UHGV virus genome: UHGV-1407879
Strand: one strand, 5' to 3'
From: a virus
Length of the DNA stretch: 25,161 nt
Of this stretch, positions 3,043 to 25,161 are shown one piece after another (within the stretch, counting starts at the first letter, position 1; the number at the start of each line of letters is the position of its first letter). The translations under genes and the position numbers were made by a program. The notes beneath the pieces are model-generated. The model did not search any database, was not told where the DNA came from, and was given only the letters and a program-made list of their open reading frames with translations.

Positions 3043-3048
3043 TAAGAC

Positions 3049-4266: not shown

Positions 4267-4646
4267 TAGCGATAATTTTACTCATCATCCTTCACATCTG
4301 GCTCTGTAGACAGGGTGGTGATCACTTCTGGAGTGAATCCAGATTAAACATCTCATTGCTGATGCTTGATATTGAGCATCTGGCGCGCGGTAAGGGGCTG
4401 CGTTGAGATAAGAGCCAGTTCATTACAAAGCCTATCTACTGGTGGGCTTGATAATGAAACCGGAATTTATTCTGGGTAACCAGTTACGGCAGTACAGCGA
4501 AACAACCCAAGCCAGTAAGTGGGGAAATAACACTGGCAGCCACTGAAAGATGAACCTCCTGCCTTATGGCAAAAAAAAGATTCTTTGTGGTGGCGGACTG
4601 ATGGAAAGACATCCTAATCAAGCAACCACTCCACAGGGTCATAATT

Positions 4647-5027: not shown

Positions 5028-5130
5028 TTATTACAAAAGCCATTCCCTACAGAGTGGCTTTGATAATGGCTTATACCCTACACGGGATATCTTAACTGAT
5101 ATCCCTTTTAACGGATAAACGGAGCCAACA

Positions 5131-5373
5131 ATGGCAGAGATTATTCCCATGACTGAAGAACAGAAATTCCAGTTAGAGATTTACAAGCTGGTCATGAACC
5201 AGAACGCAGCTGCAGAGGAAGCATTTCAGTTCATTGGCACTGACGAACTGAAGCTTGAGCTATTCAAAATTCACTTCCAGTCAGGCGGCGCTAATTCGGA
5301 TATCACGACCCGCACTATCGAAGCGGTGCGTAAATCGAAGGAAGCGTTAGACCTGTTCACCACCGGAGCATAA
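5131..5373 (+). CDS. Hypothetical small acidic protein (80 aa)
   Basis: ORF ending 2 nt before the TerS start (TAA 5371-5373, ATG 5376), so probably co-translated with the packaging operon. Confidence 0.45.
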   Translation: MAEIIPMTEEQKFQLEIYKLVMNQNAAAEEAFQFIGTDELKLELFKIHFQSGGANSDITTRTIEAVRKSKEALDLFTTGA

Positions 5374-5375
5374 AC

Positions 5376-5819
5376 ATGGCGCGCCCAACAAAGTATCAAG
5401 AGGCGTATGCCGAACAGGCACGCAAACTGTGCTTGCTGGGCTATACAGACGCCGAACTCGCTGACTTCTTTGAAGTTAGCGAGGCAACAATCAACAATTG
5501 GAAATTGGAATATCCGGAGTTTTTAGAGTCCATAAAAAAGGGTAAGGCCGTCGCTGATGCAGAAGTTAGTGATCGTCTTTATCAACGCGCTATGGGCTTC
5601 GTGGCTCCAGACATCGATATTCGTGTTATTGAAAACAGAATTGTCGAAACTCCGCTTAAGAAGTATTACCCGCCTGATACAACTGCCGCCATCTTCTGGC
5701 TCAAGAACAGACAGAAAGATAAATGGCGAGAGAAGCAGGACGTCAACCATACATCTGATGACGGCTCCATGACTCCAAAAGCTCCAGTGTATAACATTGT
5801 AAAAAGCGAGACGCAATGA
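5376..5819 (+). CDS. Terminase small subunit
   Basis: 147 aa directly upstream of and overlapping TerL (ATGA at 5816); N-terminal HTH-like segment (LGYTDAELADFFEVSEATINNWK). Confidence 0.7.
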   Translation: MARPTKYQEAYAEQARKLCLLGYTDAELADFFEVSEATINNWKLEYPEFLESIKKGKAVADAEVSDRLYQRAMGFVAPDIDIRVIENRIVETPLKKYYPPDTTAAIFWLKNRQKDKWREKQDVNHTSDDGSMTPKAPVYNIVKSETQ

Positions 5820-7294: not shown

Positions 7295-7295
7295 T

Positions 7296-9494
7296 ATGGC
7301 AGAAAAAAAGATGACTGACTGGCATCGCAAGGTGCTGTGCAACTTTGATAATGCCTGGTCAGCAACGCAGGATATGCGTGAGCAGATTATTGAGGCTCAA
7401 CGTTTCGTCCGGGTATCCGGCGCACAGTGGGAAGGCAGCACAAACGCTGGTTACTCATTTGATGAAGGCAGATTTGAGCATTACCCGCGCTTTGAACTAA
7501 ATAAGATTGCCCGTGAATGTGATCGCATCATTGGCGAGTATCGACAGAATCGCATCAGCGTTAAATTCAGGCCGAAGGATGACAAGGCATCGGAAGCGTT
7601 AGCCGAAAAAATGAACGGCAAATTCCGCGCTGACTATCAGGAAACATCAGGTGGCGAAGCGTGTGATAACGCATTTGATGATGCTGTAACGGGCGGATTC
7701 GGTTGTTTCCGCATGTGTGCCGATTACGAAGATGAAATGGATCCGAGTAACGAGCAGCGACGCATCAGCCTTCTTCCTGTTTACGACCCGGCGACATGCG
7801 TCTTCTTCGATCAGGACAGCAAACAATATGACCGCTCTGATGCTATGTGGGCTATGGAAATGTTCTCCATGACGCCTAAAGCGTTCGAGGCTGAATACCC
7901 TGATTCCATTGCGGCAAGCCTTTCTCGGGATGTCACTGGTACTCAGTATGACTGGTCAACGCCTGACGCCATCTATGTTGGACGTTACTACGAAGTTCGC
8001 ATAGAGAAGGTGAAGCTCACGGCGTGGCGCAACCCTGTTAGCGGAGAAACGGCAATCTATGATGAAGAGCAAATCAAAGATATTGTCGACGAGCTGACCG
8101 ATGGTGCATTCGAACTGATTGGCGAGCGAACGGTGAAGAAGCGCCGCGTTTATTGCGGTCTTCTGTCTGGCGCTGAATGGCTGGAAGAACCGAAGCGTAT
8201 TCCGGGTGAACATATTCCTCTCATCCCGGTATATGGGCGTCGCTCATTTGTTGATAATCAGGAGCGAATCGAAGGCCACGCAGCAAAAGCGATGGATGCA
8301 CAGCGTCTTGAGAACCTGATGGTTTCCATGATTGCAGATAACGCTACTCAGGCTGGCGGTGATGGCATTCCTATCGTGGATGTTGATTTCATTCCCGGTC
8401 CATTAATGAATCACTGGGCAGAGAGGAATAAGAAAAGACCTGCAGTTCTTCCCATGACCAGCAAGAAGGACAAAAACGGAACGGTCATTTCAGAAGCTCA
8501 GGTTGCTGGCTGGACACCTACGACACAAATGCCGCCAGCTCTTGCCGGGCTATTGCAGTACACCGGAACGGCTATTCAGCAAATTACAGGTGCGTCGCAG
8601 CTTGAGAACATGCCGAGCAACATCGCCACCGATACCGTTGATAGCATTTTTAACCGGATGGATACGCAGTCCTATATCTACATGGACAACATGGCTAAAT
8701 CCATGCGCCGCGCTGGCGTCGTGTGGCTTTCTATGGCGCGTGAGGTCTATGGCAGTGATACGCCGATGCGTATCGTTAATGAGGACGGCAGCGATGACGT
8801 GGCGCTGATGACCGGTGAAGTGGTTGACCGTCAGACAGGGCAGGTTATCGCGCTTAATGACCTTTCGCAGGGCAACTATGAAGTGACTGTCGATGTTGGT
8901 CAGTCGTTCGCTACTCGCCGTGATGCAACGGTTAAGTCGTTACTTTCCATGCTGGCACTTATCCCACCAGGAACGCCGAAGCACGACCTTGTATCGTCGA
9001 TGATTCTCGACAATATGGACGGCGAAGGGATGGACGACCTGAAAGAATATAACCGCAATCAGTTGCTTCTGTCTGGCGTTATCAAGCCGAGAACGCCTGA
9101 AGAACAGCAGATGGTTGAACAGGCGAAACAACAACAGGCCAGTCAGCCAGATCCGGCTATGGTTGCAGCGCAAGGTCAGCTTCTTGCTGGTCAGGCTGAA
9201 TTGCAGAAAGCGCAGAACGAACAGGCAGCCATTCAGGTTAAAGCATTCCAGGCACAGACTGATGCTCAGGTTGCAGCGGCAAATGTTGTGAAAATACTCG
9301 CATCTGCCGATAGTCAGCAGAAATCTGATATCCGCGAGGCTCTGAAACTGCTCGGACAGTTCCAGCAACAGCAAGGAGATAATGCCCGTGCTGATGCAGA
9401 GCTTGTCCTGAAAAGTCAGGCGCAGGGCCATGCGCAGCGCATGGACATCAGCAGTATCCTGCAAAAATCAACTCAGCAACAACCACAGCAGTAA
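7296..9494 (+). CDS. Portal protein (P22 gp1-like)
   Basis: 732 aa; recognisable similarity to P22 portal from memory (GEHIPLIPVYG..., C-terminal glutamine-rich helical barrel KPRTPEEQQMVEQAKQQQASQPDPAMVAAQGQLLAGQAELQKAQNEQ). Confidence 0.9.
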   Translation: MAEKKMTDWHRKVLCNFDNAWSATQDMREQIIEAQRFVRVSGAQWEGSTNAGYSFDEGRFEHYPRFELNKIARECDRIIGEYRQNRISVKFRPKDDKASEALAEKMNGKFRADYQETSGGEACDNAFDDAVTGGFGCFRMCADYEDEMDPSNEQRRISLLPVYDPATCVFFDQDSKQYDRSDAMWAMEMFSMTPKAFEAEYPDSIAASLSRDVTGTQYDWSTPDAIYVGRYYEVRIEKVKLTAWRNPVSGETAIYDEEQIKDIVDELTDGAFELIGERTVKKRRVYCGLLSGAEWLEEPKRIPGEHIPLIPVYGRRSFVDNQERIEGHAAKAMDAQRLENLMVSMIADNATQAGGDGIPIVDVDFIPGPLMNHWAERNKKRPAVLPMTSKKDKNGTVISEAQVAGWTPTTQMPPALAGLLQYTGTAIQQITGASQLENMPSNIATDTVDSIFNRMDTQSYIYMDNMAKSMRRAGVVWLSMAREVYGSDTPMRIVNEDGSDDVALMTGEVVDRQTGQVIALNDLSQGNYEVTVDVGQSFATRRDATVKSLLSMLALIPPGTPKHDLVSSMILDNMDGEGMDDLKEYNRNQLLLSGVIKPRTPEEQQMVEQAKQQQASQPDPAMVAAQGQLLAGQAELQKAQNEQAAIQVKAFQAQTDAQVAAANVVKILASADSQQKSDIREALKLLGQFQQQQGDNARADAELVLKSQAQGHAQRMDISSILQKSTQQQPQQ

Positions 9495-9584
9495 TTAACC
9501 CATAACGTGCAATGGCTGTCTTTATGAGGCCTGGCACCCTATTGCCTTCCGATGGGCTGAACATCGAGTAAACAGGGGTAACAA

Positions 9585-10478
9585 ATGGACCAGATGGCAG
9601 AAAACACACCAGAAGTTGAAATCGAAACCGACGCGTCAGAGCAGATTCCTGATGATGTCGAACTGGCTGAAGAAGTCGAAACAGAAGATGGCAGTGAGTC
9701 CTCCGGCAATGATGCAGAGGAAACTACTGAAACTGATGACGACGAATCAGAGCAGGAATTCTACTTTGGTGACGAAAAGCTGGATTCGCCAACCAGCGAA
9801 GATAGCGCAGAGCATGGACTGGTAAAACACCTGCGCAAGACGATTAAAGAGAAAGACCGCGAGCTGAAAGAGCTGATGCGTCAGTCTCAGAAACCCGTCG
9901 AGCAGCAGCCGGTAATCACTCAACCACCGCGAATGCCAAAACTGGACGATGAGGACATCGGTTTCGATGAAGAAATCTACCAGCAACGCATGGCTAAGTG
10001 GGCAGAGGATAACGGCAAGTACCAGCAACAGGAGATGGCTCGCAAGCAGAAGGAGCAGGAGCTTCAGGCTGCCTATCAAGAGCGATTATCCAAATATCAG
10101 CAACGTGTTAAGGCTCTCAAAGTTCCTGGCTATCAGGAAGCTGAGCAGGCCGTACTCGAGGAAATTCCCATCGAGACACAAAACGCGATCCTGTTTGAGT
10201 CAGAGAAGCCGGAAATCGTTGTTCTGGCGCTCGGTCGCAACGCTGAACTGCGCAAGCAACTGGCAGAAGCTACCAACCCCGTAGCAATTGGTCGTCTGCT
10301 GGAACGTATCGAATCGAAGGCCAGAATCATGCCAAAAGCAAAAACCACGGCAGCCACAACCCCGACAGTTAAGGGGAGCAACGGCGCAGTAATCAATAAC
10401 CTAGACAAACTGAAAGCCAAGGCGCTGGAAACTGGTGACTGGACGCCGTATTTCGCCGCTAAAAAGGCAAAAAAATAA
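9585..10478 (+). CDS. Scaffolding protein (P22 gp8-like)
   Basis: 297 aa, highly acidic N-terminus, coiled-coil-prone middle, basic C-terminal helix-turn-helix-like tail (KLKAKALETGDWTPYFAAKKAKK); between portal and coat. Confidence 0.8.
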   Translation: MDQMAENTPEVEIETDASEQIPDDVELAEEVETEDGSESSGNDAEETTETDDDESEQEFYFGDEKLDSPTSEDSAEHGLVKHLRKTIKEKDRELKELMRQSQKPVEQQPVITQPPRMPKLDDEDIGFDEEIYQQRMAKWAEDNGKYQQQEMARKQKEQELQAAYQERLSKYQQRVKALKVPGYQEAEQAVLEEIPIETQNAILFESEKPEIVVLALGRNAELRKQLAEATNPVAIGRLLERIESKARIMPKAKTTAATTPTVKGSNGAVINNLDKLKAKALETGDWTPYFAAKKAKK

Positions 10479-10496
10479 CCTATCGGAGCATTAAGC

Positions 10497-11750
10497 ATGG
10501 CTAACCAATTAGCAAAAGACCTTGAAATCATGTTCGAAAACTACGTTGAAGGCTTTGAGGCCGCCTGCGTAGTTTCCCGTAACGCTAAAAAATTCCGTCC
10601 CGGTGATACAGCAATGCAGCGAGCAGGTGATGTTCTGTATCGTCCGCAGCATTACCACATGAACATTGAGGAAGGCCTCGACCTCAGCGGAAAAACGCCT
10701 ACAGCACTGGTTCAGCGCCTTGTTCCTTCTGTGTTCAAGGAGCCGAAAAACATTCTGTACACTCTGGATGCGCGTGAAATGCGTGACCCGGAACATAAAA
10801 CTGAAGCTGGTCGCGCCGCAGGTATGCGCCTTGCTGCACAGATTGACTCTGACCTGATTTCCATGGTTACGCAGCGTGCTACTAACGTGATCACGATGGC
10901 TGACTCAACCACAGGTTCACAGGGCCGTGATTTGTGGAACTGTGCGGCAGGTATTGATGCCACCATGACGGCGATTGGTGTACCACAGGGTATCAACCGC
11001 CGCTCTTTCTGGAACCCCTTCAACTACAAAGACCTTGCTGGCGAGCTTGGTCACCGTGCCTATGCTCAGGGCGCAACCCTGACAGCATACGAAAAAGCGC
11101 AGATCCCTCCGGTTGCTTCCTTTGATAGCTACAAGACCGATATTTCTGGTCGTGTTCCGAAGGGTACAGCAACTCCCATTACGCTGGCAGCAGCACCTGC
11201 GCACAAGGTTGAAGCGAAAGATGCCAACGATATGCCAGTGGATAACCGACAGGGGACCATTACGGTATCTGCATCTGGTTTGCAGGTTGGCGATGCGTTC
11301 ACTATTGCTGGCGTGAATTCCGTACACCAGATCACCAAAGATACCACCGGGCAGCCGCAGGTATTCCGCGTTCTGGCAGTAAGCGGAACGACAGTAACTA
11401 TCTCCCCGAAAATTCTGCCGCCTGACAACGCGGATGTCGCCAGCCGACCATATGCAAACGTTGATGCTAACGCGGCAAGTAGCGCAGCAATCACCATTCT
11501 CAACAAAAATGCCGCACCGGCTAACCTGTTCTGGGCTGATGGTTCTGTTGAACTGATGTACGGCAAACTGGCGTTCCCAACTGGTCAGGGGCCACAGGTA
11601 ATGACGGCAACCACCGAGCAGGGCGCTACGCTGATCATGTCTTACGCCTTCGACCACATCAAAGGCGTAACCACTGCTCGTTTCACCACTCTGTATGGTT
11701 GCTCTGTACTTGTTCCTGAATATACGGGCATCGTTATTGCCGGGCAGTAA
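10497..11750 (+). CDS. Major capsid (coat) protein, P22 gp5-like
   Basis: 417 aa; position after scaffold; C-terminal region resembles P22 coat from memory (RPYANVDAN...NLFWADGSVEL). Confidence 0.9.
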   Translation: MANQLAKDLEIMFENYVEGFEAACVVSRNAKKFRPGDTAMQRAGDVLYRPQHYHMNIEEGLDLSGKTPTALVQRLVPSVFKEPKNILYTLDAREMRDPEHKTEAGRAAGMRLAAQIDSDLISMVTQRATNVITMADSTTGSQGRDLWNCAAGIDATMTAIGVPQGINRRSFWNPFNYKDLAGELGHRAYAQGATLTAYEKAQIPPVASFDSYKTDISGRVPKGTATPITLAAAPAHKVEAKDANDMPVDNRQGTITVSASGLQVGDAFTIAGVNSVHQITKDTTGQPQVFRVLAVSGTTVTISPKILPPDNADVASRPYANVDANAASSAAITILNKNAAPANLFWADGSVELMYGKLAFPTGQGPQVMTATTEQGATLIMSYAFDHIKGVTTARFTTLYGCSVLVPEYTGIVIAGQ

Positions 11751-11757
11751 TTTTGGT

Positions 11758-11780
11758 GGGGCTTCGGCCCCATTTTTATT
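11758..11780 (+). terminator. Rho-independent terminator downstream of coat gene
   Basis: GGGGC-TTCG-GCCCC hairpin followed by ATTTTTATT. Confidence 0.65.
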
Positions 11781-11791
11781 GGGAGAAGACA

Positions 11792-11980
11792 ATGGCACGA
11801 ACAATGCTCTATAAGCCTGGCAACATGATCACCTGTGGTCAGTTTGCTGTCGATTACATCATTGTTGATGACGAAGAAGTTAAATCTCACCTGAAAAAAG
11901 GCTGGGTGAAAACTCCTGAAGAAACCGCAACGAAGCATAAAGTGGCTAAGGCGGAAGAAGATGGCGAAAACGAAGGGTGA
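11792..11980 (+). CDS. Hypothetical small protein (62 aa from ATG 11792)
   Basis: ORF with SD-like GGGAGAAG upstream of ATG 11792; the track ORF starts at 11753, but that extension would run through the terminator hairpin. Overlaps the gp4 start by 20 nt. Confidence 0.4.
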   Translation: MARTMLYKPGNMITCGQFAVDYIIVDDEEVKSHLKKGWVKTPEETATKHKVAKAEEDGENEG

Positions 11981-12422
11981 TCTCGTTCTTAAGGCTTTAC
12001 GAAAAGCCGGGCTGTATTCCAATGCCACGTTGACAGATGCTGACCCTCAGGCAATTGAAGATGCCATTAATGACCTCGAAGACATGATGGCAGCATGGCA
12101 GGCTAAAGGTATCGAGCTTGGATATCAGTTTGCTGATACAGAAAACGGCATCATGCCGTTACCTGACGATGATTCAGGTATCCCTGCATGGGCAAATGAT
12201 GGCGTCGCTTTGAAACTCGCTGTGCAAGTGTGCATGGATAACGTCATTCAGCCGTCAGACGCTCTCCTTACCGCTGCTGACAGTGCATATCAGACAATCT
12301 GTATCGCTTTAACCAAAATACCACCACTTGAGCGGCGAAATGACATGCCTCGCGGTAGTGGTAACAAAAGCGCGTTTACGTGGAATCGGTTTTACATCGA
12401 GAAAGGTGATCCGAGTACGTGA
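11961..12422 (+). CDS. Head completion / tail adaptor protein (P22 gp4-like)
   Basis: 153 aa; N-terminus KTKGDLVLKALRKAGLYSNATLTDADPQAIEDAINDLEDMMAAW resembles P22 gp4 from memory. Confidence 0.85.
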   Translation: MAKTKGDLVLKALRKAGLYSNATLTDADPQAIEDAINDLEDMMAAWQAKGIELGYQFADTENGIMPLPDDDSGIPAWANDGVALKLAVQVCMDNVIQPSDALLTAADSAYQTICIALTKIPPLERRNDMPRGSGNKSAFTWNRFYIEKGDPST

Positions 12423-12431
12423 GGTGAATAA

Positions 12432-13850
12432 ATGCCGATTCAGCAACTTCCGCTTATGAAAGGTGTCGGCAAAGACTTTCGAAACGCCGACTATATCGAC
12501 TATCTGCCAGTGAATATGTTGGCTACACCCAAAGAAATACTCAACAGCAGCGGATATCTTCGCTCATTCCCGGGCATTGCCAAACGTTCTGATGTGAACG
12601 GCGTATCGCGCGGAGTTGAGTACAACATGGCGCAGAATGCTGTTTATCGCGTTTGTGGTGGCAAACTGTATAAGGGCGAAAGTGAGGTCGGTGATGTTGC
12701 CGGAAGTGGTCGCGTATCAATGGCGCATGGTAGGACATCACAGGCAGTAGGCGTTAATGGTCAACTGGTCGAGTATCGTTATGATGGCACGGTTAAAACC
12801 GTCTCAAACTGGCCTACAGACAGCGGATTTACGCAGTATGAGATAGGTTCTGTTCGTGACATTACGCGCTTACGTGGGCGTTATGCGTGGTCAAAAGACG
12901 GAACTGATTCATGGTTTATCACTGACCCTGAAGACGAATCACATCCTGACCGTTACAGCGCACAATATCGCGCAGAATCGCAGCCGGACGGTATCATCGG
13001 CATCGGAACATGGCGAGACTTCATCGTCTGCTTTGGTTCATCGACGATTGAATATTTCTCCCTGACTGGCGCAACCACCGTTGGTGCTGCTTTGTATGTC
13101 GCACAGCCATCACTGATGGTGCAAAAAGGCATTGCCGGAACTTACTGCAAAACGCCGTTTGCTGATTCCTATGCGTTCATCAGCAATCCGGCAACGGGTG
13201 CGCCGTCTGTGTATATCATCGGCTCCGGTCAGGTGTCACCAATTGCCAGCGCGAGCATTGAGAAAATCCTCCGCTCCTACACTGCTGATGAACTGGCTGA
13301 TGGTGTGATGGAATCGCTGCGGTTTGATGCTCATGAGTTGCTGATTATCCACCTTCCTCGCCATGTTCTCGTGTACGACGCATCTTCAAGCGCCAATGGT
13401 CCGCAATGGTGTGTACTGAAAACAGGCTTGTATGACGATGTGTACCGCGCTATCGACTTCATTTACGAAGGAAATCAGATAACGTGCGGCGATAAGCTGG
13501 AATCGGTGACCGGGAAATTGCAGTTCGATATCAGCAGTCAGTATGGGCTTCAACAGGAACACCTGCTGTTTACTCCACTGTTCAAAGCGGATAACGCCAG
13601 ATGCTTCGATCTGGAGGTGGAATCATCCACTGGCGTAGCTCAGTACGCCGACCGCCTGTTCCTCTCTGCAACCACTGACGGCATAAATTATGGGCGTGAG
13701 CAGATGATTGAGCAGAATGAACCGTTCGTTTACGACAAACGCGTTTTGTGGAAACGAGTAGGGCGCATCAGGAAAAACATTGGTTTCAAATTGCGCGTTA
13801 TCACGAAGTCACCTGTCACTCTGTCTGGCTGCCAGATAAGGATTGAGTAA
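12432..13850 (+). CDS. Tail hub protein (P22 gp10-like)
   Basis: 472 aa, near-identical over long stretches to P22 gp10 from memory ([16 protein letters not shown]...[32 protein letters not shown]). Confidence 0.9.
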
Positions 13851-14551
13851 TGGCGGATTCGAATCTCAATGAGCCGGTAACAATTCAGGCTACACGACTC
13901 GATACATCAATCCTTCCACGCAATATATTCAGCCAGTCTTACCTGTTGTATGTCATTAATCAGGGGGCTGATGTCGGCGCAATTGCCGGGAAGGCAAATC
14001 AGGCTGGTCAGGGCGCTTACGATGCTCAGGTGAAAAACGATGAACAGGACGTCGAACTGGCTGATCACGACGCAAGAATCACCGCAAACACAAAAGCGAT
14101 AAATCTACTTGAGGTCAGGTTAACAACCGCCGAAGGGAAGATAGTCGTACTGCGTAGCGATGTTGATTACTTGCTGGATGAGGTTATCGATATTCAGGCG
14201 CATCTGGTCACTGTTGACCAAAGACTGGATGGCGTAGAAAGCGATGTATCTGACATTAAGAGTGATTACGTATCGAAAACCGTAACCGAATCGCAGTCTC
14301 TTGCGTCACCGCTGGATGTAAAAACATCATATTCAGTTGATGGAATTCAGGTTGTTGGAGCAAGAAATACCGGATGGACTACAGCCACAGGTACGCCACT
14401 TCTTGGCTCATTCAACGCTAACCAGTCATACACTGTCGGCACTACGTACACACAATCCGAAGTCGCAGCTCTCGCTACAGGTTTGCAGCAGGCGCGGCAG
14501 CGTATTCTGGCGCTTGAAACGGCACTTAGATTACATGGGCTGATTGACTGA
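13850..14551 (+). CDS. Tail needle protein (P22 gp26-like)
   Basis: 233 aa; N-terminus [25 protein letters not shown] and C-terminus ...[12 protein letters not shown] match P22 gp26 from memory; central trimeric coiled-coil repeats. Confidence 0.9.
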
Positions 14552-15000
14552 TGATTACATTCAAACCAACGCGAAACATCGACCTGATAGAAGCAGTCGG
14601 AAATCACCCTGACATTATCGCCGGGAGCAACAACGGCGATGGATACGACTACAAACCTGAATGCCGTTACTTTGAGGTGAACGTGCACGGTCAGTTCGGC
14701 GGAATTGTTTACTATCAGGAGATTCAGCCGCTGACATTCCACGCCATGTACCTGCCAGAGATTCGCGGATTCAGCAAGGAAATCGGGCTGGCGTTCTGGC
14801 GATATATTCTGACTAACACCACCGTTCAGTGCGTCACATCGTTCGCCGCACGCAAATTCCGCCACGGTCAGATGTATTGCGCAATGATTGGTCTTAAGCG
14901 TGTAGGAACCATCAAGAAATACTTCAAAGGCGTGGATGACGTGACGTTTTACAGCGCAACACGCGAAGAACTAATCGACTTCCTGAATCACGGGAGATAG
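14551..15000 (+). CDS. P22 gp14-like protein (head assembly / ejection-associated)
   Basis: 149 aa in the gp14 position between the gp26 and gp7 homologues; ATGA overlap with gp26. Confidence 0.75.
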   Translation: MITFKPTRNIDLIEAVGNHPDIIAGSNNGDGYDYKPECRYFEVNVHGQFGGIVYYQEIQPLTFHAMYLPEIRGFSKEIGLAFWRYILTNTTVQCVTSFAARKFRHGQMYCAMIGLKRVGTIKKYFKGVDDVTFYSATREELIDFLNHGR

Positions 15001-15002
15001 CC

Positions 15003-15695
15003 ATGTTATATGCATTTAAGCTGGGCAGAAAACTGCGCGGCGAGGAACCTTATTGCCCTGAAAAGGGTGGGAAAGGTGGCAGTTCTGATAAAAGCGCAAA
15101 GTATGCAGCAGAAGCTCAGAAGTATGCCGCAGACCTGCAAAATCAGCAGTTCAACACCATCATGAATAACCTGAAGCCGTTTACTCCTCTGGCTGAGAAG
15201 TATGTCGGCAGCCTCGAGAACTTATCGTCTCTGGAGGGGCAAGGTCAGGCACTTAACCAGTATTACAACTCTCAGCAGTATAAAGACCTTGCAGGTCAGG
15301 CTCGCTATCAGAGTCTGGCGGCAGCGGAAGCAACAGGTGGATTGGGTTCCACCGCAACCAGTAATCAGTTAGCAACAATCGCACCAACGCTTGGTCAGCA
15401 ATGGCTATCTGGACAAATGAACAATTACAACAACCTGGCAAATATCGGTCTTGGCGCTCTTCAGGGGCAGGCAAACGCCGGGCAAACATATGCCAACAAC
15501 ATGAGCCAGATTTCACAGCAAAGCGCGGCGCTGGCGGCTGCAAACGCCAACCGACCGTCAGCATTGCAGCAGGGTGTTAGTGGTGCTGCATCCGGTGCGC
15601 TTTTGGGTGGTGGCATAGCCAGTGCTCTCGAGCTATCAACTCCGTGGGGTGCTGGTATCGGTGCTGGTCTTGGTCTGCTTGGCTCGTTGTTTTAA
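15003..15695 (+). CDS. Ejection protein (P22 gp7-like)
   Basis: 230 aa; Q/N/A-rich with glycine-rich hydrophobic C-terminus; position and N-terminus (MLYAFKLGRKLRGEEPY) consistent with P22 gp7. Confidence 0.85.
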   Translation: MLYAFKLGRKLRGEEPYCPEKGGKGGSSDKSAKYAAEAQKYAADLQNQQFNTIMNNLKPFTPLAEKYVGSLENLSSLEGQGQALNQYYNSQQYKDLAGQARYQSLAAAEATGGLGSTATSNQLATIAPTLGQQWLSGQMNNYNNLANIGLGALQGQANAGQTYANNMSQISQQSAALAAANANRPSALQQGVSGAASGALLGGGIASALELSTPWGAGIGAGLGLLGSLF

Positions 15696-15705
15696 GGGGT
15701 AATCA

Positions 15706-17037
15706 ATGGCTACGTGGCAACAGGGTATTAATTCTGGTGGTTTTCTGGCTGGCATTGGTGCGCAAAACGAGAATGCGCCAAAGGCAAGCGACATTAACGC
15801 AACGCTTGGTCTGATCCGCGAAAACAATGAACTGGCTCGCTCAGGTGCAAATAACGTTGGTCTGACCGCGTTACGTGGTCTGGCTGGAGTTGCTGATATT
15901 TATAAGCAGGAACAGCAACAGAAAGCGATTAGTGCGTTCAATAAGGTTCACGCTGATGCATGGGCTTCTGGTGATCCATCGGGACTATTTAAGTTTGCCC
16001 AGGAAAATCCAGCGTTTGTTGCACAGGCACAACAGGCGTTTTCCGGTCTTAATGAGCAGCAACGCAACGATATGGGCGATTTAGCCATGAGGGCTAACGT
16101 CGCTCTTTCTCAGGGACCGGAAGCCTACAGTAAATTCATTACTGACAACAAGGACAGGTTAAATCGCGTGGGTGCGAATGCTGACTGGATGATTCAGACA
16201 GGTATCCAGAATCCAGAGCAGCTATCACACATGCTGACTACTATGACGCTAGGGGCTGTTGGTCCGGATAAAATGCTGGATTATCAGGATAAGATGGTTG
16301 GTCGCCAACTAGAGAAAGGGCGATTGGATGAAAGCATCCGTCAGGCTGATATGGAGAATGCGAGAGGATGGGCAAATATCCAGAACGCTCAACTAGACAG
16401 GGCTCAGCGGGCACAAATGCATAATGATAACGTAGCCCTGAAGTTGCAGGAATTAGGGATGAAACAACAGGAAAGCGGAAAGATTGACCCAAAACTTGTT
16501 CGAGATCTGAATAGTGATATTAATGGGTTCTCAAAGAATTATTCTGCAATGCGCAGTGCTTCTGACAACCTACAAGCCCTTGGGAAGCGCAACACTCCAG
16601 CAGCGCAGTTGGGAATGATTTTCAACTATATGAAATCGCTGGATCCGCAATCTGTGGTACGCGAAGGTGAGCAAGTGCAGGTAAAACGCACTGATGGAAT
16701 ATTCGGCACACTTGGTAACTATGTTAGCCAATTATCTAACGGCAAGATGCTGAATAATGAGCAAGTCCAGGACTTAATCAATACCTCAAAACTGATGGCA
16801 AATACTGAAGGCGAAAAGTTTAACCAGCAAATGGATGATTATCTTTCAACTTATGGAGATTCTCTCCCCAGCGGACTAACTAAGCAATTGCAATCCAGAA
16901 AAGCCAAGCTGTATGAAGATATTCAGCAGCCTGCGCAACAACAGAGCAATAACCAACAACCGACAAATACCCAACAGCAGCAGAGTCAATCCGGATCATA
17001 TACCTCAAAATCAGGCATTCAATTTACGGTGGAATGA
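15706..17037 (+). CDS. Ejection protein (P22 gp20-like)
   Basis: 443 aa; synteny between gp7 and gp16; Q-rich C-terminus. Confidence 0.8.
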
Positions 17038-19160
17038 TGAAAGTAACTGCAAACGGAAAGACATTTACCTTCCCTGATGGTACGAGCACGGAAGATATTG
17101 GCACCGCCATTGATGAGTATTTTACTGGTCAGGCTGTTCAGCAACAAACAGTTAATCAGGCCAATAATGAACCAGCACGTGAAGAACCATCATTGATGCA
17201 ACAAGCTGGCGATTGGCTCACTGGTGGTCAAAGTGCAGGGCAAATTGCAGAACAGGCTGGTCGTGGTCTGGTAAACATACCATTTGATGTATTGCAGGGT
17301 GGCGCAAGTCTGATTAATGCAATCAGCCAGGGGCTTGGTGGGCCAAAAGTATTGGATGATGTTTATCGTCCAGTCGATCGACCGACAGACCCTTACGCGC
17401 AAGCCGGTGAAACAATTGGTGGGGATCTCCTGCCAATTGGCACAGCGGCAAAAGCTGCTGGAGCGCCAGCAAAGCTCGCTGGAGATATCGGTTCCGCAGG
17501 AAACATGATTGCAGGTTCTCTTGCTGATGCTGCAAATCAGGAGGGCGATTTTGCACAAAATGCTGCCATTAACGGTGGTATCAATATTGGTGCTCAAGGC
17601 GTTCTTTCAGGTGTCGGGCGCGTTATTGCGCCAAGGGTTTCACAGGCTCTTGGTGGTGCAGCACTGAATTCTGCTAATGATGTTTCTAGGATGGCAAAGT
17701 CAGGTGCTGGGCGTCAGTCAATTGCCAGTCAGGCCGCTAATGTGTCCGAAGATGTAGCAAAAGCGGCTGAGTCTGCTGGAATTGATATAAACGCATTAAC
17801 ACCAGGAATGCGATCTGGAAGTCGTGGAATTGCACAAGCCGAAGGCGCATTGGCATCAACACCTGGAATTGTTCAGGACGCCCATCAGGCAGCATTTAAC
17901 GAAATATCATCAAAGTTAAGTCGAAACCTTGATGAATTTGGGGCCACATCTGGAACGGCATCAGAAAAAAGTGCGGCTATAAAACAAAGGATTCTTCAAA
18001 ATCTTGATCAGATGAAGGATGCCGAGCGCGCGGCATGGGATGACGTGCGGTCAACAATGCCAAATCAAAAAGCAAGAATGCTAAATGGTAATGCCGTTAT
18101 TCAGGCAGAGCGATCTGCTGGCATACCGCTTACTCCTGAAATGAAACAGTTTGTTCAGGCAAACAATCAAGGTGGAGTAACATTTGATGGCATGAAAGCA
18201 TGGAGAGCGAAATTTGCTGATGCGGAGCAAAAATATAAGCGTAGCGGAGAGGCAAATGCGGCAAGGAGAGCAGGGGAAATACGCCGGGCAATTACTGATG
18301 ATATGCGCACAATGGCGGAAAACGGCGGATTTCTTGATGACTGGCAGAAAGCTAATGATCTGTCTAAAGCGAGGTTATCAGCACAAGAGAGTGCAGAGTC
18401 TGTTTTCGGGCGTGATTTGGCAACAGATGCACTGATTACGAATGGAGTAAAATCCCTTCAATCATCGTCAGCTAAAGGTCTTAATGGTCCTGCTGGATTC
18501 CATTCTATGATCCGCGCGCTGCCAGAATCAGAGCGTGTTCCTGCTATATCATCAATGTTGCAAGATGCTATCTCGCATGGTGTACGTGGTGGCAAAGCTG
18601 ATGCAGCAGGAATTAACCATATCGCAGAGATACTGACTCCACAAAATGTAAAAGCCATTAGCCGATATTCCTCAGAGCTTGGAAGAATTGCTGATGCATA
18701 TGGCACTCTTGCAAGAGCAGCAGTGAAACCTCAGCAGTATATTGAAAGAACAGGTAGAACTGCCAATGTACTACGCGATCTGGATGCTGGTTTATCCAAC
18801 GTCACATCAACAGTGTTAAATGCAATTGCCAATTCAACATCAGGTGCCATTGTTGGTGGCGCTGGAGGAGGCATTGCAGGCGCTGCCGCAGGTGCTTTAG
18901 TTGGCGCTGGGTTAAAAGGCGCTGTATCTAAAATTGCCACCACACGTAGTGGTCGGTATGCGATAGAGAAAGCGGTTCAGGAAGCAACTAAAGCAGTAAG
19001 AGCAGGCGGAAGCAAAGAAGCATTAGCGGCGGCGGAACGCAGATTTATGGCAAATAAGGCCGCCGTAAAAGCAATACGCGAGGCACTAGGAAACGAAGAG
19101 TTCCAGCGTTTAGCAAGGGCTGGAATTGTGGCATCGCTAAGCGGAATGGCACAGGAGTAA
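17034..19160 (+). CDS. Ejection protein (P22 gp16-like), extended
   Basis: 708 aa; last gene of the ejection-protein trio; Gly/Ala-rich segments ([21 protein letters not shown]); ATGA overlap with gp20. Confidence 0.8.
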
Positions 19161-19490
19161 TTAGTCATCCATGGATGGATTGAGCTTATCTCGTGTTGAT
19201 GTGGCAATTTTACCAACATTTTTCAACCAAGATTTTAAGAAGGATATGTCGTCCTTAATATCATGAATATCCTCATTCTTTATACGATCAACCTTATCCT
19301 CTAGGCTCTCTATAGAACGCTCAATGCTAGACAGAGAGATTTTTAAGTCTCCTTGCTCACGTTCCAGTGAGGATTTGAGAGCACAATATTCGTTTTCTAG
19401 AATTCCTATTTTTTTTGTTAGAGAGTGCATTCGATACTCATACACCAAACTAGAAACGACTAATGCAGCCAACAGAAACCATTCAAGCAC
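19161..19490 (-). CDS. Small membrane-anchored coiled-coil protein (109 aa), unknown function
   Basis: GTG start preceded by AAGGAGG with about 5-nt spacing; N-terminal TM helix (LEWFLLAALVVSSLVY) then heptad-rich acidic domain; AT-rich codon usage by eye. Confidence 0.6.
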   Translation of the reverse strand: MLEWFLLAALVVSSLVYEYRMHSLTKKIGILENEYCALKSSLEREQGDLKISLSSIERSIESLEDKVDRIKNEDIHDIKDDISFLKSWLKNVGKIATSTRDKLNPSMDD

Positions 19491-19572
19491 ACCAACCTCC
19501 TTAGTTTTGTGCAGGATACCATGATGTCAGTGCAAGGGGGAGAAAGTCTCCTCATTATCTGATTTGCAATTT

Positions 19573-19608
19573 ACGTGCATATTTAAATATTGCACGTTAC
19601 AACGTGCA
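19573..19608. promoter_or_regulatory. Operator-like triple half-site ACGTGCA / TGCACGT / ACGTGCA in divergent promoter region
   Basis: ACGTGCA (19573-19579), 11-bp AT spacer TATTTAAATAT, TGCACGT (19591-19597), TACA, ACGTGCA (19602-19608); a TTGCAA -35-like hexamer lies at 19564-19569. Confidence 0.5.
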
Positions 19609-19643
19609 TGTGTATGATTGACTTATCAATCACAACACGAGAT

Positions 19644-20657
19644 ATGCTCATGAAAAATGATGATGTTAGTGGGAAGGCCAAAGGCGGTAAGGCACGCGCG
19701 GCAAAAATGACAGCAGAGCAAAGAAAAGAATCCTCAAGAAAGGCTGTTGCCGCAAAAAAAGAAAAAGCTTTATTGCCCGTATCTGCGAATGAGGGAAAGT
19801 TAAAGATCGGTGATGCGGAATTAGATGTCGCGGTTCTCGAAAATGGACGGCGTATCATATCACAAGCTTCTGTTTTTAAAGCATTTGGCCGACCACAAAG
19901 AGGGGGTAGAGCACCTCAAGAAGAGGGTGTGATCAATATGCCCGCTTTTATGGATGCTGCAAACCTTAAAAAATATATAAATCAAGATGTTATGGATGTG
20001 ATCAATAAGGTCAAATACAAGACGATTACTGGCTCCGTCCAGGAAGGTTATGACGCATCCATAATACCTCTTGTCTGCGATGTTTATTTAAAGGCAAGAG
20101 AGGCAGGCGCTATCACCAGGCCAAACCAGTTAGAGACAGCCAAGAAAGCTGAAATTCTGGTGCGCTCATTAGCTAAAGTCGGAATAATAGCGCTTGTTGA
20201 TGAAGCGACGGGGTACCAGCGAGATAGAGAAAAAGATGCACTCGCCAAAATACTCGAGGCCTTTGTCGCAAAGGAAATTCAACCTTATATTACAACATTT
20301 CCTGCTGATTATTATGAAGAGCTTTTCAGGTTAAGGGGCTTAGAATCCCCGCCGGAAAATCCCCGCTTCCGGCCTCAGTATTTTGGCGTTTTGACAAATG
20401 ATATCGTCTACAAGAGATTGGCACCAAACATCCTTGAGGAGCTTAAAAAGCAGAACGTAAAGGCCTCAAAAGGTACAAAGTTGTTTCAGGGGCTGACGCC
20501 AAATATTGGATATCAAAAATTAAGAGAGCATCTGTCATCAACCGTTACGATTATGAAGCTATCTAACGATTATTCAGATTTTATTGCAAAAATGAATCGC
20601 CTGCATCCAAGGTTTGAGGATGTGAAAACAGACGAACTGGATGATTCAGACAAGTAA
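19644..20657 (+). CDS. Hypothetical protein with lysine-rich basic N-terminus (338 aa from ATG 19644; ORF open from 19590)
   Basis: Long ORF with own promoter/operator upstream and terminator downstream. The track start at 19590 is a TTG inside the operator; ATGs at 19608, 19614, 19644 and 19650 are alternative starts. Basic low-complexity N-terminal tail (SGKAKGGKARAAKMTAEQRKESSRKAVAAKKEK) then globular domain. Confidence 0.6.
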   Translation: MLMKNDDVSGKAKGGKARAAKMTAEQRKESSRKAVAAKKEKALLPVSANEGKLKIGDAELDVAVLENGRRIISQASVFKAFGRPQRGGRAPQEEGVINMPAFMDAANLKKYINQDVMDVINKVKYKTITGSVQEGYDASIIPLVCDVYLKAREAGAITRPNQLETAKKAEILVRSLAKVGIIALVDEATGYQRDREKDALAKILEAFVAKEIQPYITTFPADYYEELFRLRGLESPPENPRFRPQYFGVLTNDIVYKRLAPNILEELKKQNVKASKGTKLFQGLTPNIGYQKLREHLSSTVTIMKLSNDYSDFIAKMNRLHPRFEDVKTDELDDSDK

Positions 20658-20661
20658 CAGT

Positions 20662-20686
20662 AACCCACCTTCAGGTGGGTTTTTTG
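20662..20686. terminator. Bidirectional rho-independent terminator between convergent genes
   Basis: ACCCACC-TTCA-GGTGGGT hairpin followed by TTTTT on + strand; A-run on the other side; overlaps the last codons of mnt. Confidence 0.65.
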
Positions 20687-20922
20687 TACAAATCCTTCAG
20701 CGTATCAAACACCATCTTCTTAACAAGCTCTGACTGCTCATCAGCGAGTCGTTCTGCATCGTCGCGATAGCCTGCAATCGGTGATGGTTTTGATAGCGCA
20801 TCCTGAACGATTTGTAATAACTCTGAGTTCATTGACCTTCCGTTAGCCTCTGCTCTTAATTTCAATTTTTCTCTTACTTCCAAAGGCATACGGAAGTTAA
20901 AGTGCGGATCGTCTCTAGCCAT
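20671..20922 (-). CDS. mnt: Mnt repressor (ribbon-helix-helix)
   Basis: 83 aa, near-identical to P22 Mnt from memory (ARDDPHFNFRMP.EVREKLK.RAEANGRSMNSELLQIVQDALSKPSP...). Confidence 0.9.
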   Translation of the reverse strand: MARDDPHFNFRMPLEVREKLKLRAEANGRSMNSELLQIVQDALSKPSPIAGYRDDAERLADEQSELVKKMVFDTLKDLYKKPT

Positions 20923-20945
20923 GCCATCACTCCAAGTTAGTATCT

Positions 20946-21209
20946 CTAACTTTCGTCTTTATTGTTGCTATACATGCATTTCAACTTCTCAACATCATGT
21001 TCAAGATCTATCAATCGTGATGCTATAGTTGCAAGGTCTAGTGCTTGAATGTGTTTATTTTTTTCGGTCCATGCTTCAAGTGCCGCGACCATCTCAGCAT
21101 TTAATGAACGAGAATTAGCCTCAGCCAGTTCAATAAGACGTTCCTTTATCTCTACAGGAAGCCTCAGATTCACTTGAGGGTTTTTGTACTTACGATCAGA
21201 CATTGGCAC
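20946..21209 (-). CDS. Second Mnt/Arc-family ribbon-helix-helix regulator (87 aa)
   Basis: N-terminal RHH signature (NLRLPVEIKERLIELAEANSRSLNAEMVAAL) plus C-terminal helical extension as in Mnt; lies between mnt and the operator region. Confidence 0.7.
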   Translation of the reverse strand: MPMSDRKYKNPQVNLRLPVEIKERLIELAEANSRSLNAEMVAALEAWTEKNKHIQALDLATIASRLIDLEHDVEKLKCMYSNNKDES

Positions 21210-21249
21210 ATCCTGAATAATTTTTTACCACAGGATATGTAGGTATCTA

Positions 21250-21278
21250 TTGACTATCAATGCGTACCTAAATACTAT
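21250..21278 (+). promoter_or_regulatory. Pant-like promoter with overlapping operator repeats
   Basis: -35 TTGACT (21250-21255), 17-bp spacer, -10 TACTAT (21273-21278); palindrome ATTGA-CTA-TCAAT (21249-21261); direct repeats ATGCGTACC at 21260-21268 and 21281-21289. Confidence 0.55.
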
Positions 21279-21308
21279 GTATGCGTACCACATACAACGG
21301 AGGATGCA

Positions 21309-21449
21309 ATGAAGGTAAAAACACTGCGTATGCCAGAGAAGTTAGAAAAAATCCTTGAAGAGAAAGCAAAGGAAGAGTGTCGCTCATTTAGTGCAGAAGT
21401 AATTAAACGGGTGATGGACAGCCTGAAGAGAGAGGGGATAACGGTATGA
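21309..21449 (+). CDS. arc: Arc-like ribbon-helix-helix repressor (46 aa)
   Basis: Not in the ORF track (under 60 aa). GGAGG 6 nt upstream of ATG 21309; translation MKVKTLRMPEKLEKILEEKAKEECRSFSAEVIKRVMDSLKREGITV aligns with the P22 Arc strand-helix-helix pattern (FNLRWPREVLDLVRKVAEENGRSVNSEIYQRVMESFKKEG). Confidence 0.7.
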   Translation: MKVKTLRMPEKLEKILEEKAKEECRSFSAEVIKRVMDSLKREGITV

Positions 21450-21649
21450 GTAAAGAATGTTGTTTCTGCGGCATTAGCGAATCAGACGCTGATCAAACAT
21501 ACATTTACTCTAAAGAAACAGGTCGGATGCTGTGTAGTGACTGCGTGTTGGACATCATAAGATACAAGCATCTTGGATGTTCTGCCAGCATTAGCAATAT
21601 AGGTGAAGTATATGAAGGGAAAGATATAACTGATAGAGCAGAAAGTTGA
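21446..21649 (+). CDS. Small Cys-rich protein (67 aa), putative zinc-ribbon
   Basis: ATGA overlap with the arc stop (translational coupling); cysteine pattern CCFC...CSDC...C. Confidence 0.5.
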   Translation: MSKECCFCGISESDADQTYIYSKETGRMLCSDCVLDIIRYKHLGCSASISNIGEVYEGKDITDRAES

Positions 21650-22636: not shown

Positions 22637-22654
22637 CAGATAACCAACGCAACG

Positions 22655-22679
22655 ACCCAGCTTCGGCTGGGTTTTTTTA
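22655..22679 (+). terminator. Rho-independent terminator downstream of ant
   Basis: CCCAGC-TTCG-GCTGGG hairpin followed by TTTTTTT. Confidence 0.7.
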
Positions 22680-22814
22680 TGCCCAAAATTCACCGCAGCA
22701 ACTAAGCGGCGATGGCCTTGATGGATAGCACTACACAAAAAGTGTAGTGCAAAAAGCAAACAAATACTCACCGTAGCTACGCTGCGGCGATTCATTGTAT
22801 CTGGAGCAAATTAA

Positions 22815-24965
22815 ATGACAGACATTACAGCCAATGTGATCGTATCGATGCCTTCGCAACTCTTCACTATGGCGCGTTCTTTTAAAGCCGTAGCCAATGG
22901 CAAAATTTATATCGGTAAAATTGACACTGATCCTGTAAATACAGAAAACCAGATTCAGGTCTATGTGGAGAATGAAGACGGTTCTCACGTTCCTGTTTCG
23001 CAACCAATAATCATTAACGCTGCTGGATATCCGGTATATAACGGACAGATTGCCAAATTCGTTACCGTGCAAGGCCATTCTATGGCTGTTTATGATGCGT
23101 ATGGTGCGCAGCAGTTCTATTTTCCTAATGTGCTGAAGTATGACCCTGATCAACTACGGCAGCAATTAGAAGACCCGGATGGAGCTAAAAAATATCCTGA
23201 ATTGCAGATATCTCGGTGGAGGGACGATTGTGATGTAAGAGGGTGGGGGGCAAAAGGCGATGGTATAACAGATGATACATCTGCATTGATCTTGGCTGCA
23301 GAATATGCACGAGAATCATCCAAAACATTACGAGCGGAAGGTAATTTTATTATTACGGAGACATTAAATCTTCGTAATGTCAGCCTCGAAATGACCAATG
23401 CTGTTTTTACCATATCCCACTCAGGAATAGGGGTATTGCTTGGCGGGAATGCATCAAACCCTAACAACCCAAGACAAAACTTCGGAACGATTATCAGAAA
23501 TTCTGGTATTTCATCTGAAACGACACCGGATATTCGTATTATTGGGGCAAAAGGGCAGCATATAAACATTGAGCGTTGCGACTACTTACAGTTATATGCA
23601 AATTATAATGCTTCGGTGGCATCGACGGATTATTCAATAGCATACTCAACCTTTAACCTGAAAAAGGTCGATACAATTCATTTTCTTGGAGTTGAGAACG
23701 GATGGATAAATGAAAACTATTTTTATCTGAATCGTACGAATAATATCATTTTCGCTGATAATCCATATCATCATAACCACAATAAGTTTTATGGTGGAAC
23801 TATGGAGGGGGCAGGTAAAATTGATATTCAAAGAGGTGATAACAATTACTTCTACGGGTTTCGTTTTGAACGATATCCATCATCCCCAACTAACCAACAG
23901 TTGATAATTAACTTTGGTGAATATACGTGGAATAACTCAATTGAGGCTTCATGGTTAAGTTCTCCTTACTATACAAATGAACCATACAATCCATCACCTT
24001 ACACTTATGTAGAGGTAACTGATAATGGCAAGGGGAATGCAGTATTTCATGTTCAGGAAAATATATCCGATGAAGTAACATTGTTTTCTTTAAATGCTAA
24101 CACCCCATTTATATCCAGTGCCAACAATGGAGAAGTTGGTGCATTAGCATATCAAACAGATGTAGATGGTTTATATAATATCCGTCACCTAGTTTCTTCT
24201 AAGTTTGCTTTTATGCGGAATTTTGGGTTGTTATGGGAATCTGGAGATGTACCAGTAAGAAATGGTGATATGTTTACATTCTCAGCAGATACGGCATCGT
24301 TTCGCATTTACCTGTATGCATTAGATGGAGATGGGAATGTCATAACTTCACAAACAGAAGCAATAACTTCTTCTATGCAATGGGATTCATCTAACCATAG
24401 ATATGCTACTGTTGCTAACATTTCTTCCATTAAGATCAGGATTAATAATGAAGGGGTTCCAGTTAGTGCAATTCGTTTAGCTGTGTATTCTGGTGGTAAT
24501 GTAGCGAATACTGCATTTTCATGGCTATGCTTAACTGGTAGATATTACAAAAATAGCACATCCTTGCCAAGGAAAAGCAAAGATAACTTCACCTTAAAAC
24601 AAGGAAAAGCAATTACTTATTATAGTGATACTGATATTAGTATGGCTAACATTGGTTCAGGAATTACCTGTTATAAAACCGATTTATCTGAAATCAAAAT
24701 TAATCTTGTAAGGGGCAGGTATGTAGTGAAATCAATTTCAGGCAGTGAAATATATGTATACCAAGGAACAGTCACTTATTACCCTCCATTCAGTGATGTC
24801 AAATTGGTATATACGGATGGGGTTGAAAATAAATTATTAGATGTGCAAAACATCTCTTCAGGAAAGATTACTCTTGCAGATACAGTACCATCAGCTATAT
24901 CTGCAGGTGATTTTGTAGATGTTATTGTTACGAAGACGAAGTCTATTTTATCCAGTGCGCCGTAA
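22815..24965 (+). CDS. Tailspike protein: P22 gp9-like head-binding N-domain fused to a divergent receptor-binding domain
   Basis: 716 aa; N-terminal ~115 aa closely matches P22 tailspike from memory ([11 protein letters not shown]...[21 protein letters not shown]...VLKYDPDQ). The remainder is unrelated, visibly AT-rich, with a pectate-lyase-fold-like motif ([14 protein letters not shown]). Confidence 0.9.
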
Positions 24966-25161
24966 AACCCCGTTCTGCATGGTATGGAGGATGTCAGCAC
25001 GTGCGTGGGATATGGCAAGCCTGATGGATTTTTCTATGCCGTTGGTGGTGTGCCCGCTGATCTGGCTGTTGAGCCGTTAAATATAAAAAGCCGCAGTAAC
25101 TTGTCATGATAGGATACTGCGGCTGGCTGGTTAACTTTCGATAGTGCGAGTATTGAATGAT

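Follow-up and report, generated by a model that had tools for sequence, protein, structure and literature searches.

We analyzed a stretch of viral DNA of 25,161 nucleotides (nt) from the UHGV virus genome UHGV-1407879, called here the window, and focused on its tailspike gene, an ATG-to-stop open reading frame (ORF) on the plus strand (22815..24965) that encodes 716 amino acids (aa) plus the stop codon. The gene and its surroundings show the following layout, where CUS-3 is a prophage of Escherichia coli K1, E-1246 and PS_131_S11 are E. coli strains with a homologous tailspike and Dep-ORF8 is the gp17 protein of the Pasteurella phage PHB02:

21713..22636, plus strand: ant (antirepressor, 307 aa), the last immI gene, from the ORF list and with 94% DNA identity to the ant region of CUS-3
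22654..22673, plus strand: terminator-like hairpin between ant and the tailspike gene, with an 8-bp stem containing 5 GC pairs and then a T-run
22803..22806, plus strand: GGAG ribosome-binding site, 9 nt before the ATG, read from the sequence
22815..24965, plus strand: whole tailspike gene, from the ORF list, with the exact protein on at least 10 public contigs
22815..23153, plus strand: head-binding (virion-anchor) domain, aa 1-113, by Pfam PF09008 and the Protein Data Bank (PDB) entries of Sf6 gp14 and P22
23154..23246, plus strand: helical neck or linker of the CUS-3 type, aa 114-144, with lower identity after about 23182, by the short AlphaFold helices at 111-144 and a three-way DNA alignment
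23247..23284, plus strand: crossover zone of 38 nt, aa 145-157, where homology to CUS-3 ends and homology to E-1246 starts, by alignment
23247..24104, plus strand: right-handed parallel beta-helix, aa ~145-430, which presumably binds the capsule and holds the catalytic site
23544..23870, plus strand: candidate active-site groove, a stretch of invariant residues with a putative catalytic role, by the invariant columns of two family alignments
24105..24962, plus strand: C-terminal beta-rich domains, aa ~431-716, part of the same mobile module, by AlphaFold secondary structure and homology to Dep-ORF8 up to the last residues
24957..24965, plus strand: 3' junction of the module, where the last residues are SSAP, by blastn coordinates and translations
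24919..25080, plus strand: remnant of a small membrane-protein gene, with 13/25 residues identical to the C-terminus of a 95-aa ORF of PS_131_S11

To judge by its sequence, the window is a P22-like (Lederbergvirus), CUS-3-like E. coli prophage. Its best phage match was CUS-3, with 94.7% identity over 68% of the window, and this match takes in the portal, terminase, coat and ejection proteins as well as ant. The gene order runs from gp16 through small immI genes (P63C, Arc/Mnt) to ant and the tailspike, and the position of ant directly upstream of the tailspike marks a gene order of the P22/CUS-3 type. The ant product, at identical length on sister contigs, carries PF10547 and PF10548. We found the same order on the public contigs encoding the exact 716-aa protein, in which the tailspike is the last phage gene and adjoins torT-torR-torCA. 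Near-identical tailspikes in strains E200086 and W46 end the prophage at argW, followed by intS. This is also the site of CUS-3, which we take to be integrated at argW, whereas the exact protein of the window adjoins torT instead. The tailspike is therefore the last late gene after immI and ant in a window that is collinear with CUS-3, with the prophage end or an integrase downstream in the sister copies.

Regarding the protein, aa 1-113 aligned to the complete PF09008 head-binding model (positions 1-113/113) with an E-value of 1.7e-66 and 222 bits, against a cut-off of 24. This places it among the P22-like tailspikes (Lederbergvirus gp9 type) and confirms the P22-type head-binding domain that had been proposed for the first ~115 residues in an earlier, sequence-only reading of this DNA. 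The PDB sequence matches to Sf6 gp14 (E 8e-64) and P22 (2xc1, E 1.6e-48) were both restricted to aa 1-118, and the match to an HK620-type tailspike likewise ended at about aa 117. Beyond the head-binding domain, a Pfam search of the 716-aa protein at E<=1 gave nothing, and searches of the receptor-binding module in curated families (Pfam, NCBIfam) returned no match. In particular, Pfam detected no Peptidase_S74 chaperone domain (PF13884) in the 716-aa protein. The similarity to P22 gp9 lies in the head-binding domain (aa 2-117 with 2xc1) and in the trimeric beta-helix design. In contrast, the receptor-binding part of gp9 cannot be aligned in sequence and gave a Foldseek template modelling (TM) score of 0.18 at 16% identity. 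We detected no P22 tail Pfam domain in the C-terminal part, which does not belong to the P22 endorhamnosidase catalytic domain, and no alignment to the P22 endorhamnosidase along its whole length was found. The earlier proposal that the remainder is unrelated to the P22 tailspike is thus correct.

The limits of the exchanged segment could be placed by comparing the window with its two closest relatives. Homology to CUS-3 is already present upstream of the start codon and breaks off at window position 23284 (gene nt 470, aa 157); over these 470 nt, the gene is 93% identical to the K1 endosialidase tailspike gene. Homology to the 771-aa protein of E-1246, which has a different N-terminus and lies in another E. 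coli prophage context, covers 23247 (gene nt 433, aa 145) to 24957 (~1.7 kb) with 99% identity. In the three-way alignment, the 38-nt overlap at 23247-23284 is the sole stretch common to all three. This overlap encodes the conserved start of the beta-helix, within a GAKGDGxTDDT motif, and the motif recurs with 70-83% aa identity in tailspikes with other catalytic parts, including K5 lyases and PF12708 proteins. We infer that these 38 nt serve as a homologous-recombination site for module exchange, which would set the junction at aa 145-157, beyond the head-binding domain with its end at ~113. Within the neck (23154-23284, compared with 3840-3970 of the CUS-3 piece examined), an identity to CUS-3 of ~95% gives way to ~75% beyond ~23182 (aa ~123), and this drop points to a second, older site of exchange. 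The sequence-only reading had put the swap at ~115. An anchor followed by a foreign module is indeed what we found, with the exchange junction, relative to the nearest relatives, at aa 145-157. Its interpretation as a host-range module exchange is supported by the identity to CUS-3 in nt 1-470 only, the identity to E-1246 in nt 433-2143 only and the presence of the same module behind several N-termini.

Base composition follows the same boundary. GC content (GC) ranges from 0.43 to 0.47 over gene nt 1-470. For gene nt 475-2148 (1674 nt) we obtained a GC of 0.364, and of 0.283 at third codon positions (GC3), versus a GC of 0.478 for the 22.8 kb upstream (chi-square P = 2e-19). None of 2114 equally long upstream windows fell below 0.411, in agreement with the lower GC previously noted after the N-terminus.

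At the 3' side, the window and the copies of PS_131_S11 and E-1246 cease to match at 24957, 8 nt short of the stop codon, so that the last residues differ. The other copies stop four codons earlier and are followed by the 95-aa ORF, predicted as a two-helix membrane protein. In other strains this hydrophobic ORF follows the tailspike on both prophage backbones (at 9742-10026 of the E-1246 piece examined and at 8174-8461 of two further pieces), and hence it travels with the module. All that remains of it in the window is a diverged 3' end that overlaps the stop codon of the tailspike gene. A Pfam search of the 95-aa ORF gave no match, and we did not count it as part of the system.

The closest precedent for this organization is CUS-3, which shares with the window the order of ant and tailspike, a P22 anchor carrying a capsule-specific module and aa 1-157 (93% identical at the DNA level). 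The two differ in what follows the anchor: a sialidase module with neuO downstream in CUS-3, and in the window a beta-helix module from another family, without neuO. No endosialidase module follows the anchor here, as homology to CUS-3 siaK1 ends at aa 157-158.

The receptor-binding module itself is widely shared. Proteins 92-98% identical to aa 120-716 bear an N-terminus of PF09008, of PF18668 (Tail_spike_N) or an unassigned one of ~200 aa (203 aa), and module copies in other genomes are 96-99.5% identical in DNA. Among relatives with 40-48% identity, those from Aeromonas have a PF12571 tail-collar N-terminus and those from Vectrevirus PDP21P3/P6 a very short, SP6/K1-5-like one. Relatives in Pasteurella phages carry the N-terminus of T7 gp17. 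A HMMER search of 1.84 billion cluster representatives retrieved 401 relatives, 71 of them at E<=1e-30, and ~15-20 of the best 150 of the 401 align over nearly the whole module. About 540 member sequences are contained in the clusters of the 716-, 771-, 757- and 766-aa proteins taken together. A profile scan of one genome per species, with a tight alignment, found no relative; our taxonomic survey covers E. coli, Pasteurella and Aeromonas. The module belongs to phrog_18162 (1020 bits over aa 135-712), which PHROGs names only 'tail fiber protein'. By sequence membership this is an unnamed module family, and Dep-ORF8 is the sole characterized member that we found.

An AlphaFold2 model built on 33 homologues had a mean predicted local distance difference test (pLDDT) score of 80, and above 90 for most of aa 140-716. 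The head-binding domain was poorly modelled, but only for lack of coverage in the alignment. In the model, short neck helices at 111-144 are followed by a regular right-handed parallel beta-helix at ~145-430 and by further beta-rich domains up to the C-terminus, which presumably act in trimer assembly or extra sugar binding. The pectate-lyase-fold-like motif of the sequence-only reading corresponds to the first rung of this beta-helix. The fold is therefore as it suggested, with the difference that no PF12708 match at E<=1 was found in the 716-aa protein. Even the E-1246 homologue reached only E 0.0015 and 18.8 bits (cut-off 27) with PF12708, over a 24-residue motif. In two alignments, eight residues are invariant across the family down to 31% identity: K246, Y277, E300 (in GWINEN), Y318 and H320 (in YxHNHN), E331 (in MEG), R350 and E352 (both in RFER). 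They sit on successive rungs of the modelled beta-helix and are candidates for an active groove with a catalytic role. The structural neighbours were generic fold matches, most of the top ones being lyases, epimerases or hydrolases, and the best match in BFVD was a protein of the Pasteurella phage F108. We lean slightly towards a lyase (beta-elimination) over a hydrolase, since the predicted substrate has 4-linked glucuronate and the best neighbours of low root-mean-square deviation are uronate lyases and epimerases. However, the three invariant glutamates, which are stacked, would fit a hydrolase just as well.

The capsule of Pasteurella multocida type A is hyaluronan, which differs from chondroitin only in the C4 configuration of the hexosamine. 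Dep-ORF8 (with a homologue in F108) is homologous to the window protein over the full length of the module. By BLASTP, aa 133-711 aligned to Dep-ORF8 361-967 with 31% identity (E 7e-76), and the invariant motifs GW(I/V)NEN, HNHN, (M/L)EG and RFER are all kept. The two proteins differ in the N-terminus (T7-type gp17 in Dep-ORF8), in the host genus and in the substrate, which is the type A capsule and not an E. coli one. Dep-ORF8 is experimentally active and depends on a glycosaminoglycan-type capsule: the recombinant protein gave translucent spots on 31/31 P. multocida type A strains tested, from as little as 2.8 ng, and capsule-minus mutants were unaffected (PMC6090149). The type D-specific sister phage PHB01 differs essentially in gp17 (PMC6356340), and PHB01 was absent among the protein-search matches of the module.

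A second relative lies beside a known capsule enzyme. In Vectrevirus PDP21P6 (OZ035822.1), a 598-aa homologue of the module with 48% identity (3923-5719) directly follows a K5 (heparosan) lyase gene (1870-3837), whose product scores 1041 bits to PDB 2x3h. Dual capsule-specific phages such as K1-5 have their tailspike genes arranged in this way, and PDP21P6, a lytic podovirus, would be a K1-5-like phage of dual specificity, possibly for heparosan and a chondroitin-type capsule. Literature searches on the Vectrevirus PDP21 phages gave nothing relevant. The window module is distinct from the K5 lyases: the KflA chain 2x3h was not among the PDB sequence matches at E<=1, and the K5-lyase-type tailspike 9vvr matched aa 113-254 only (E 2e-15). 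KflA and the K1-5-type tailspikes show no homology beyond aa ~113-254, and the window protein, which lies outside the KflA family, differs from them in lacking the Peptidase_S74 chaperone. Besides, it did not belong by sequence to PL6, PL8, PL16, GH56 or similar families, and its similarity to chondroitinase B (PL6) and other chondroitin or hyaluronan lyases was no better than to dozens of unrelated beta-helix enzymes.

Of 5426 complete E. coli genomes, 15 carry the module. Following the logic of CUS-3 and K1, where the prophage tailspike reports the surface of the host infected, we typed the capsule (kps) locus in each of these 15. A K4 or K4-related locus of the KfoC type was present in 14/15 carriers:

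Variant A, 9 carriers: PS_131_S11, E200086, 100117, 100248, AST240, AST20, E-1246, fS10a and JNE070796
Variant B, 2 carriers: EC11 and MS14385
Genuine K4, 2 carriers: 23CRST013 and PEC011
S87 variant (a further KfoC-type locus), 1 carrier: S87
K2-like region 2 (glycerophosphotransferase type), 1 carrier: W46

Region 2 of the group 2 kps locus of PS_131_S11 comprises five genes, among them those for a UDP-glucose dehydrogenase, a GalE-type epimerase and a 689-aa GT2 protein, the last scoring 1129 bits against the crystal structure of KfoC, the chondroitin polymerase of K4. Variant B is 87% identical to variant A and has an extra gene of the pyruvyl-transferase family; together, both variants occur in only 45/5426 complete genomes, among them O166:H15 strains. 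The genuine K4 arrangement, with an IS3-family element and a KfoC scoring 1455 bits to PDB 2z86, is found in 20/5426. As an upper bound for the background we took every genome with any match to the shared kfoG/kfoF part (110/5426). Against this, 14/15 gives a hypergeometric P of about 1e-23, and of about 4e-10 when only 7 independent combinations of kps locus, backbone and integration site are counted. One could argue that the association with K4 is purely clonal. We rejected this explanation, as the association survives the conservative count of 7, and the carriers mix several kps variants, two phage backbones and at least two integration sites. In variant B hosts we also found two diverged alleles of the module (20AR0300 and N1131). 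The backbone of the K4 capsule is chondroitin-like (PMC10272209), and the presence of nearly the same allele with K4, variant A and variant B suggests that the shared backbone, and not the side groups, is recognized. With a GC of 0.36 and 0.33, respectively, the module and kps region 2 lie well under the background of E. coli and phage, and the Pasteurella homologue has 0.40; this is compatible with a common low-GC source without proving it.

Regarding the K4-related loci, we observed at least three variants of region 2, variant A being without the extra genes of K4. The pieces examined were 23597-31709 for variant A, 3001-12247 for variant B, 9001-15545 for S87 and 9001-20642 for K4.

Taking these data together, we regard the protein as the functional tailspike of a P22/CUS-3-like temperate podovirus of E. 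coli. It consists of two modules, a P22-type anchor and a swapped low-GC module that probably binds and depolymerizes the chondroitin-like capsules of the K4 family. In the proposed mechanism, the head-binding domain (aa 1-113) would fix the trimer to the tail hub. The horizontally exchanged module (aa ~145-716, beta-helix plus C-terminal beta domains) would have been joined to this anchor by recombination inside the stretch coding for GAKGDGxTDDT at the start of the beta-helix. By analogy with P22, CUS-3 and Dep-ORF8, virion trimers would bind and cleave group 2 capsules of the K4 family, which have a backbone of glucuronic acid and N-acetylgalactosamine (GlcA-GalNAc) made by KfoC-type polymerases, and the cleavage would let the virion tunnel through to the outer membrane. 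The prediction of a capsule depolymerase stems from the association with the host kps loci and from the distant but characterized homologue Dep-ORF8. On these grounds we depart from the sequence-only reading, which held the specificity to be unpredictable from sequence: the two lines of evidence yield a concrete prediction, a K4-family capsule with a chondroitin backbone.

Several points weigh against this prediction. W46 (NZ_CP163115.1, 19673-25123 of the piece examined), the sole carrier without a KfoC-type locus, has a K2-like region 2 of the CDP-glycerol glycerophosphotransferase type, which may reflect a capsule switch after lysogeny or a broader specificity. The polysaccharides of variants A, B and C are deduced from gene content, and the KfoC homologues of the variants share no more than 73-86% identity with K4 KfoC or among themselves. 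The complete genomes are a biased and partly clonal sample, and lysogens record hosts infected in the past, not the current receptor. Dep-ORF8, at 31% identity, cannot fix the specificity. Finally, no PDB sequence match at E<=1 to a chondroitin or hyaluronan lyase or hydrolase was obtained, and the fold matches are generic.

It is unlikely that the module depolymerizes another polymer (K2-like, K5 or another acidic polysaccharide) and that K4 hosts are over-represented by chance or sampling. The K2-like region 2 of W46 and the Vectrevirus PDP21P3/P6 homologue, which comes without a recorded host, would fit such a specificity, but 14/15 carriers belong to the K4 family against a background of at most 2%, and capsule switching after lysogeny easily explains one exception. 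As for K5, its lyase is a different protein with no significant match beyond the junction motif. We find it quite unlikely that the module merely binds the capsule, or modifies it (e.g. as an esterase), leaving the backbone uncut. Successive rungs present charged and aromatic residues that stay invariant down to 31% identity, Dep-ORF8 produces translucent spots in nanogram amounts and most of the top structural neighbours are lyases, epimerases or hydrolases.

The P22 tailspike targets the Salmonella O-antigen, and the closest backbone relatives (P22, HK620, Sf6 and Sf101), all of which appeared in our searches, are generally known to use O-antigen. Given also that the beta-helix fold is common to the module and to the O-antigen tailspike enzymes, one could propose an O-antigen-specific endoglycosidase like those of P22, Sf6 and HK620, the capsule association being a by-product of lineage. 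However, the carriers include an O166:H15 strain (by its record title), dog and prawn isolates and MS14385, which we believe to be ST131; they thus appear serologically diverse from record titles and general knowledge, and yet share K4-type kps loci. In addition, the nearest backbone relative, CUS-3, is capsule-specific, the only characterized homologue, Dep-ORF8, needs capsule, and a K5 capsule lyase accompanies the Vectrevirus homologue. We therefore rejected O-antigen specificity as very improbable. It is even harder to see the gene as a decaying relic of a defective prophage with no current function, which we regard as extremely improbable. The 3' rearrangement did remove the downstream 95-aa gene and change the last residues, but the frame of 716 codons is intact and its ribosome-binding site preserved, the exact protein occurs on at least 10 contigs with other copies 96-99.5% identical in DNA, and the corresponding late genes of a CUS-3-like phage are present in the window.

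As a wider and more tentative extension of the proposed K4-family specificity, the module and its Pasteurella relatives might form an unclassified beta-helix family for unsulfated glycosaminoglycan capsules (chondroitin in K4 E. coli, hyaluronan in P. multocida), which phages of enterobacteria would have drawn from a low-GC, Pasteurellaceae-like pool in parallel to the likewise low-GC KfoC-type capsule genes. We regard this as possible, though doubtful. If true, host chondroitin or hyaluronan on mucosal surfaces might be further targets for binding or cleavage by a tailspike of this kind.

As a mosaic, the tailspike is ordinary and indeed textbook; the junction is clean at the nucleotide level and the receptor prediction is specific. 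The value of the locus hence lies in the predicted specificity and not in the architecture. In the searchable literature we found no report of a phage enzyme, phage or tailspike specific for the K4 (chondroitin-backbone) capsule. Capsules of the K4 type mimic host glycosaminoglycans at the molecular level and are the industrial source of chondroitin. A K4 depolymerase, if confirmed, could serve for typing and for stripping capsules as an antivirulence measure, a use already demonstrated with Dep-ORF8 and EndoE, and possibly as a route to defined chondroitin oligosaccharides. The locus also offers a nucleotide-level example of how a conserved 38-nt motif may let one receptor module move between unrelated phage tails.

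Some additional observations concern the neighbouring regions. The immI/moron region between gp16 and ant (window 19161-21649, compared with 1-2900 of five other pieces) varies among prophages with an identical tailspike: a P63C-domain gene is present in the window, and PIN, SocA_Panacea or SIEA genes are present in other prophages. Just before ant, at 21446-21649, lies a conserved Cys-rich ORF of 67 aa (CCFC...CSDC). In E-1246, an ISEcp1-blaCTX-M-15 unit (2866-5259 of the piece examined) with Tn3 and IS26 remnants on its flanks lies beside a truncated BRO-N gene, ~2 kb upstream from the 771-aa tailspike, and represents a resistance insertion inside that prophage remnant.

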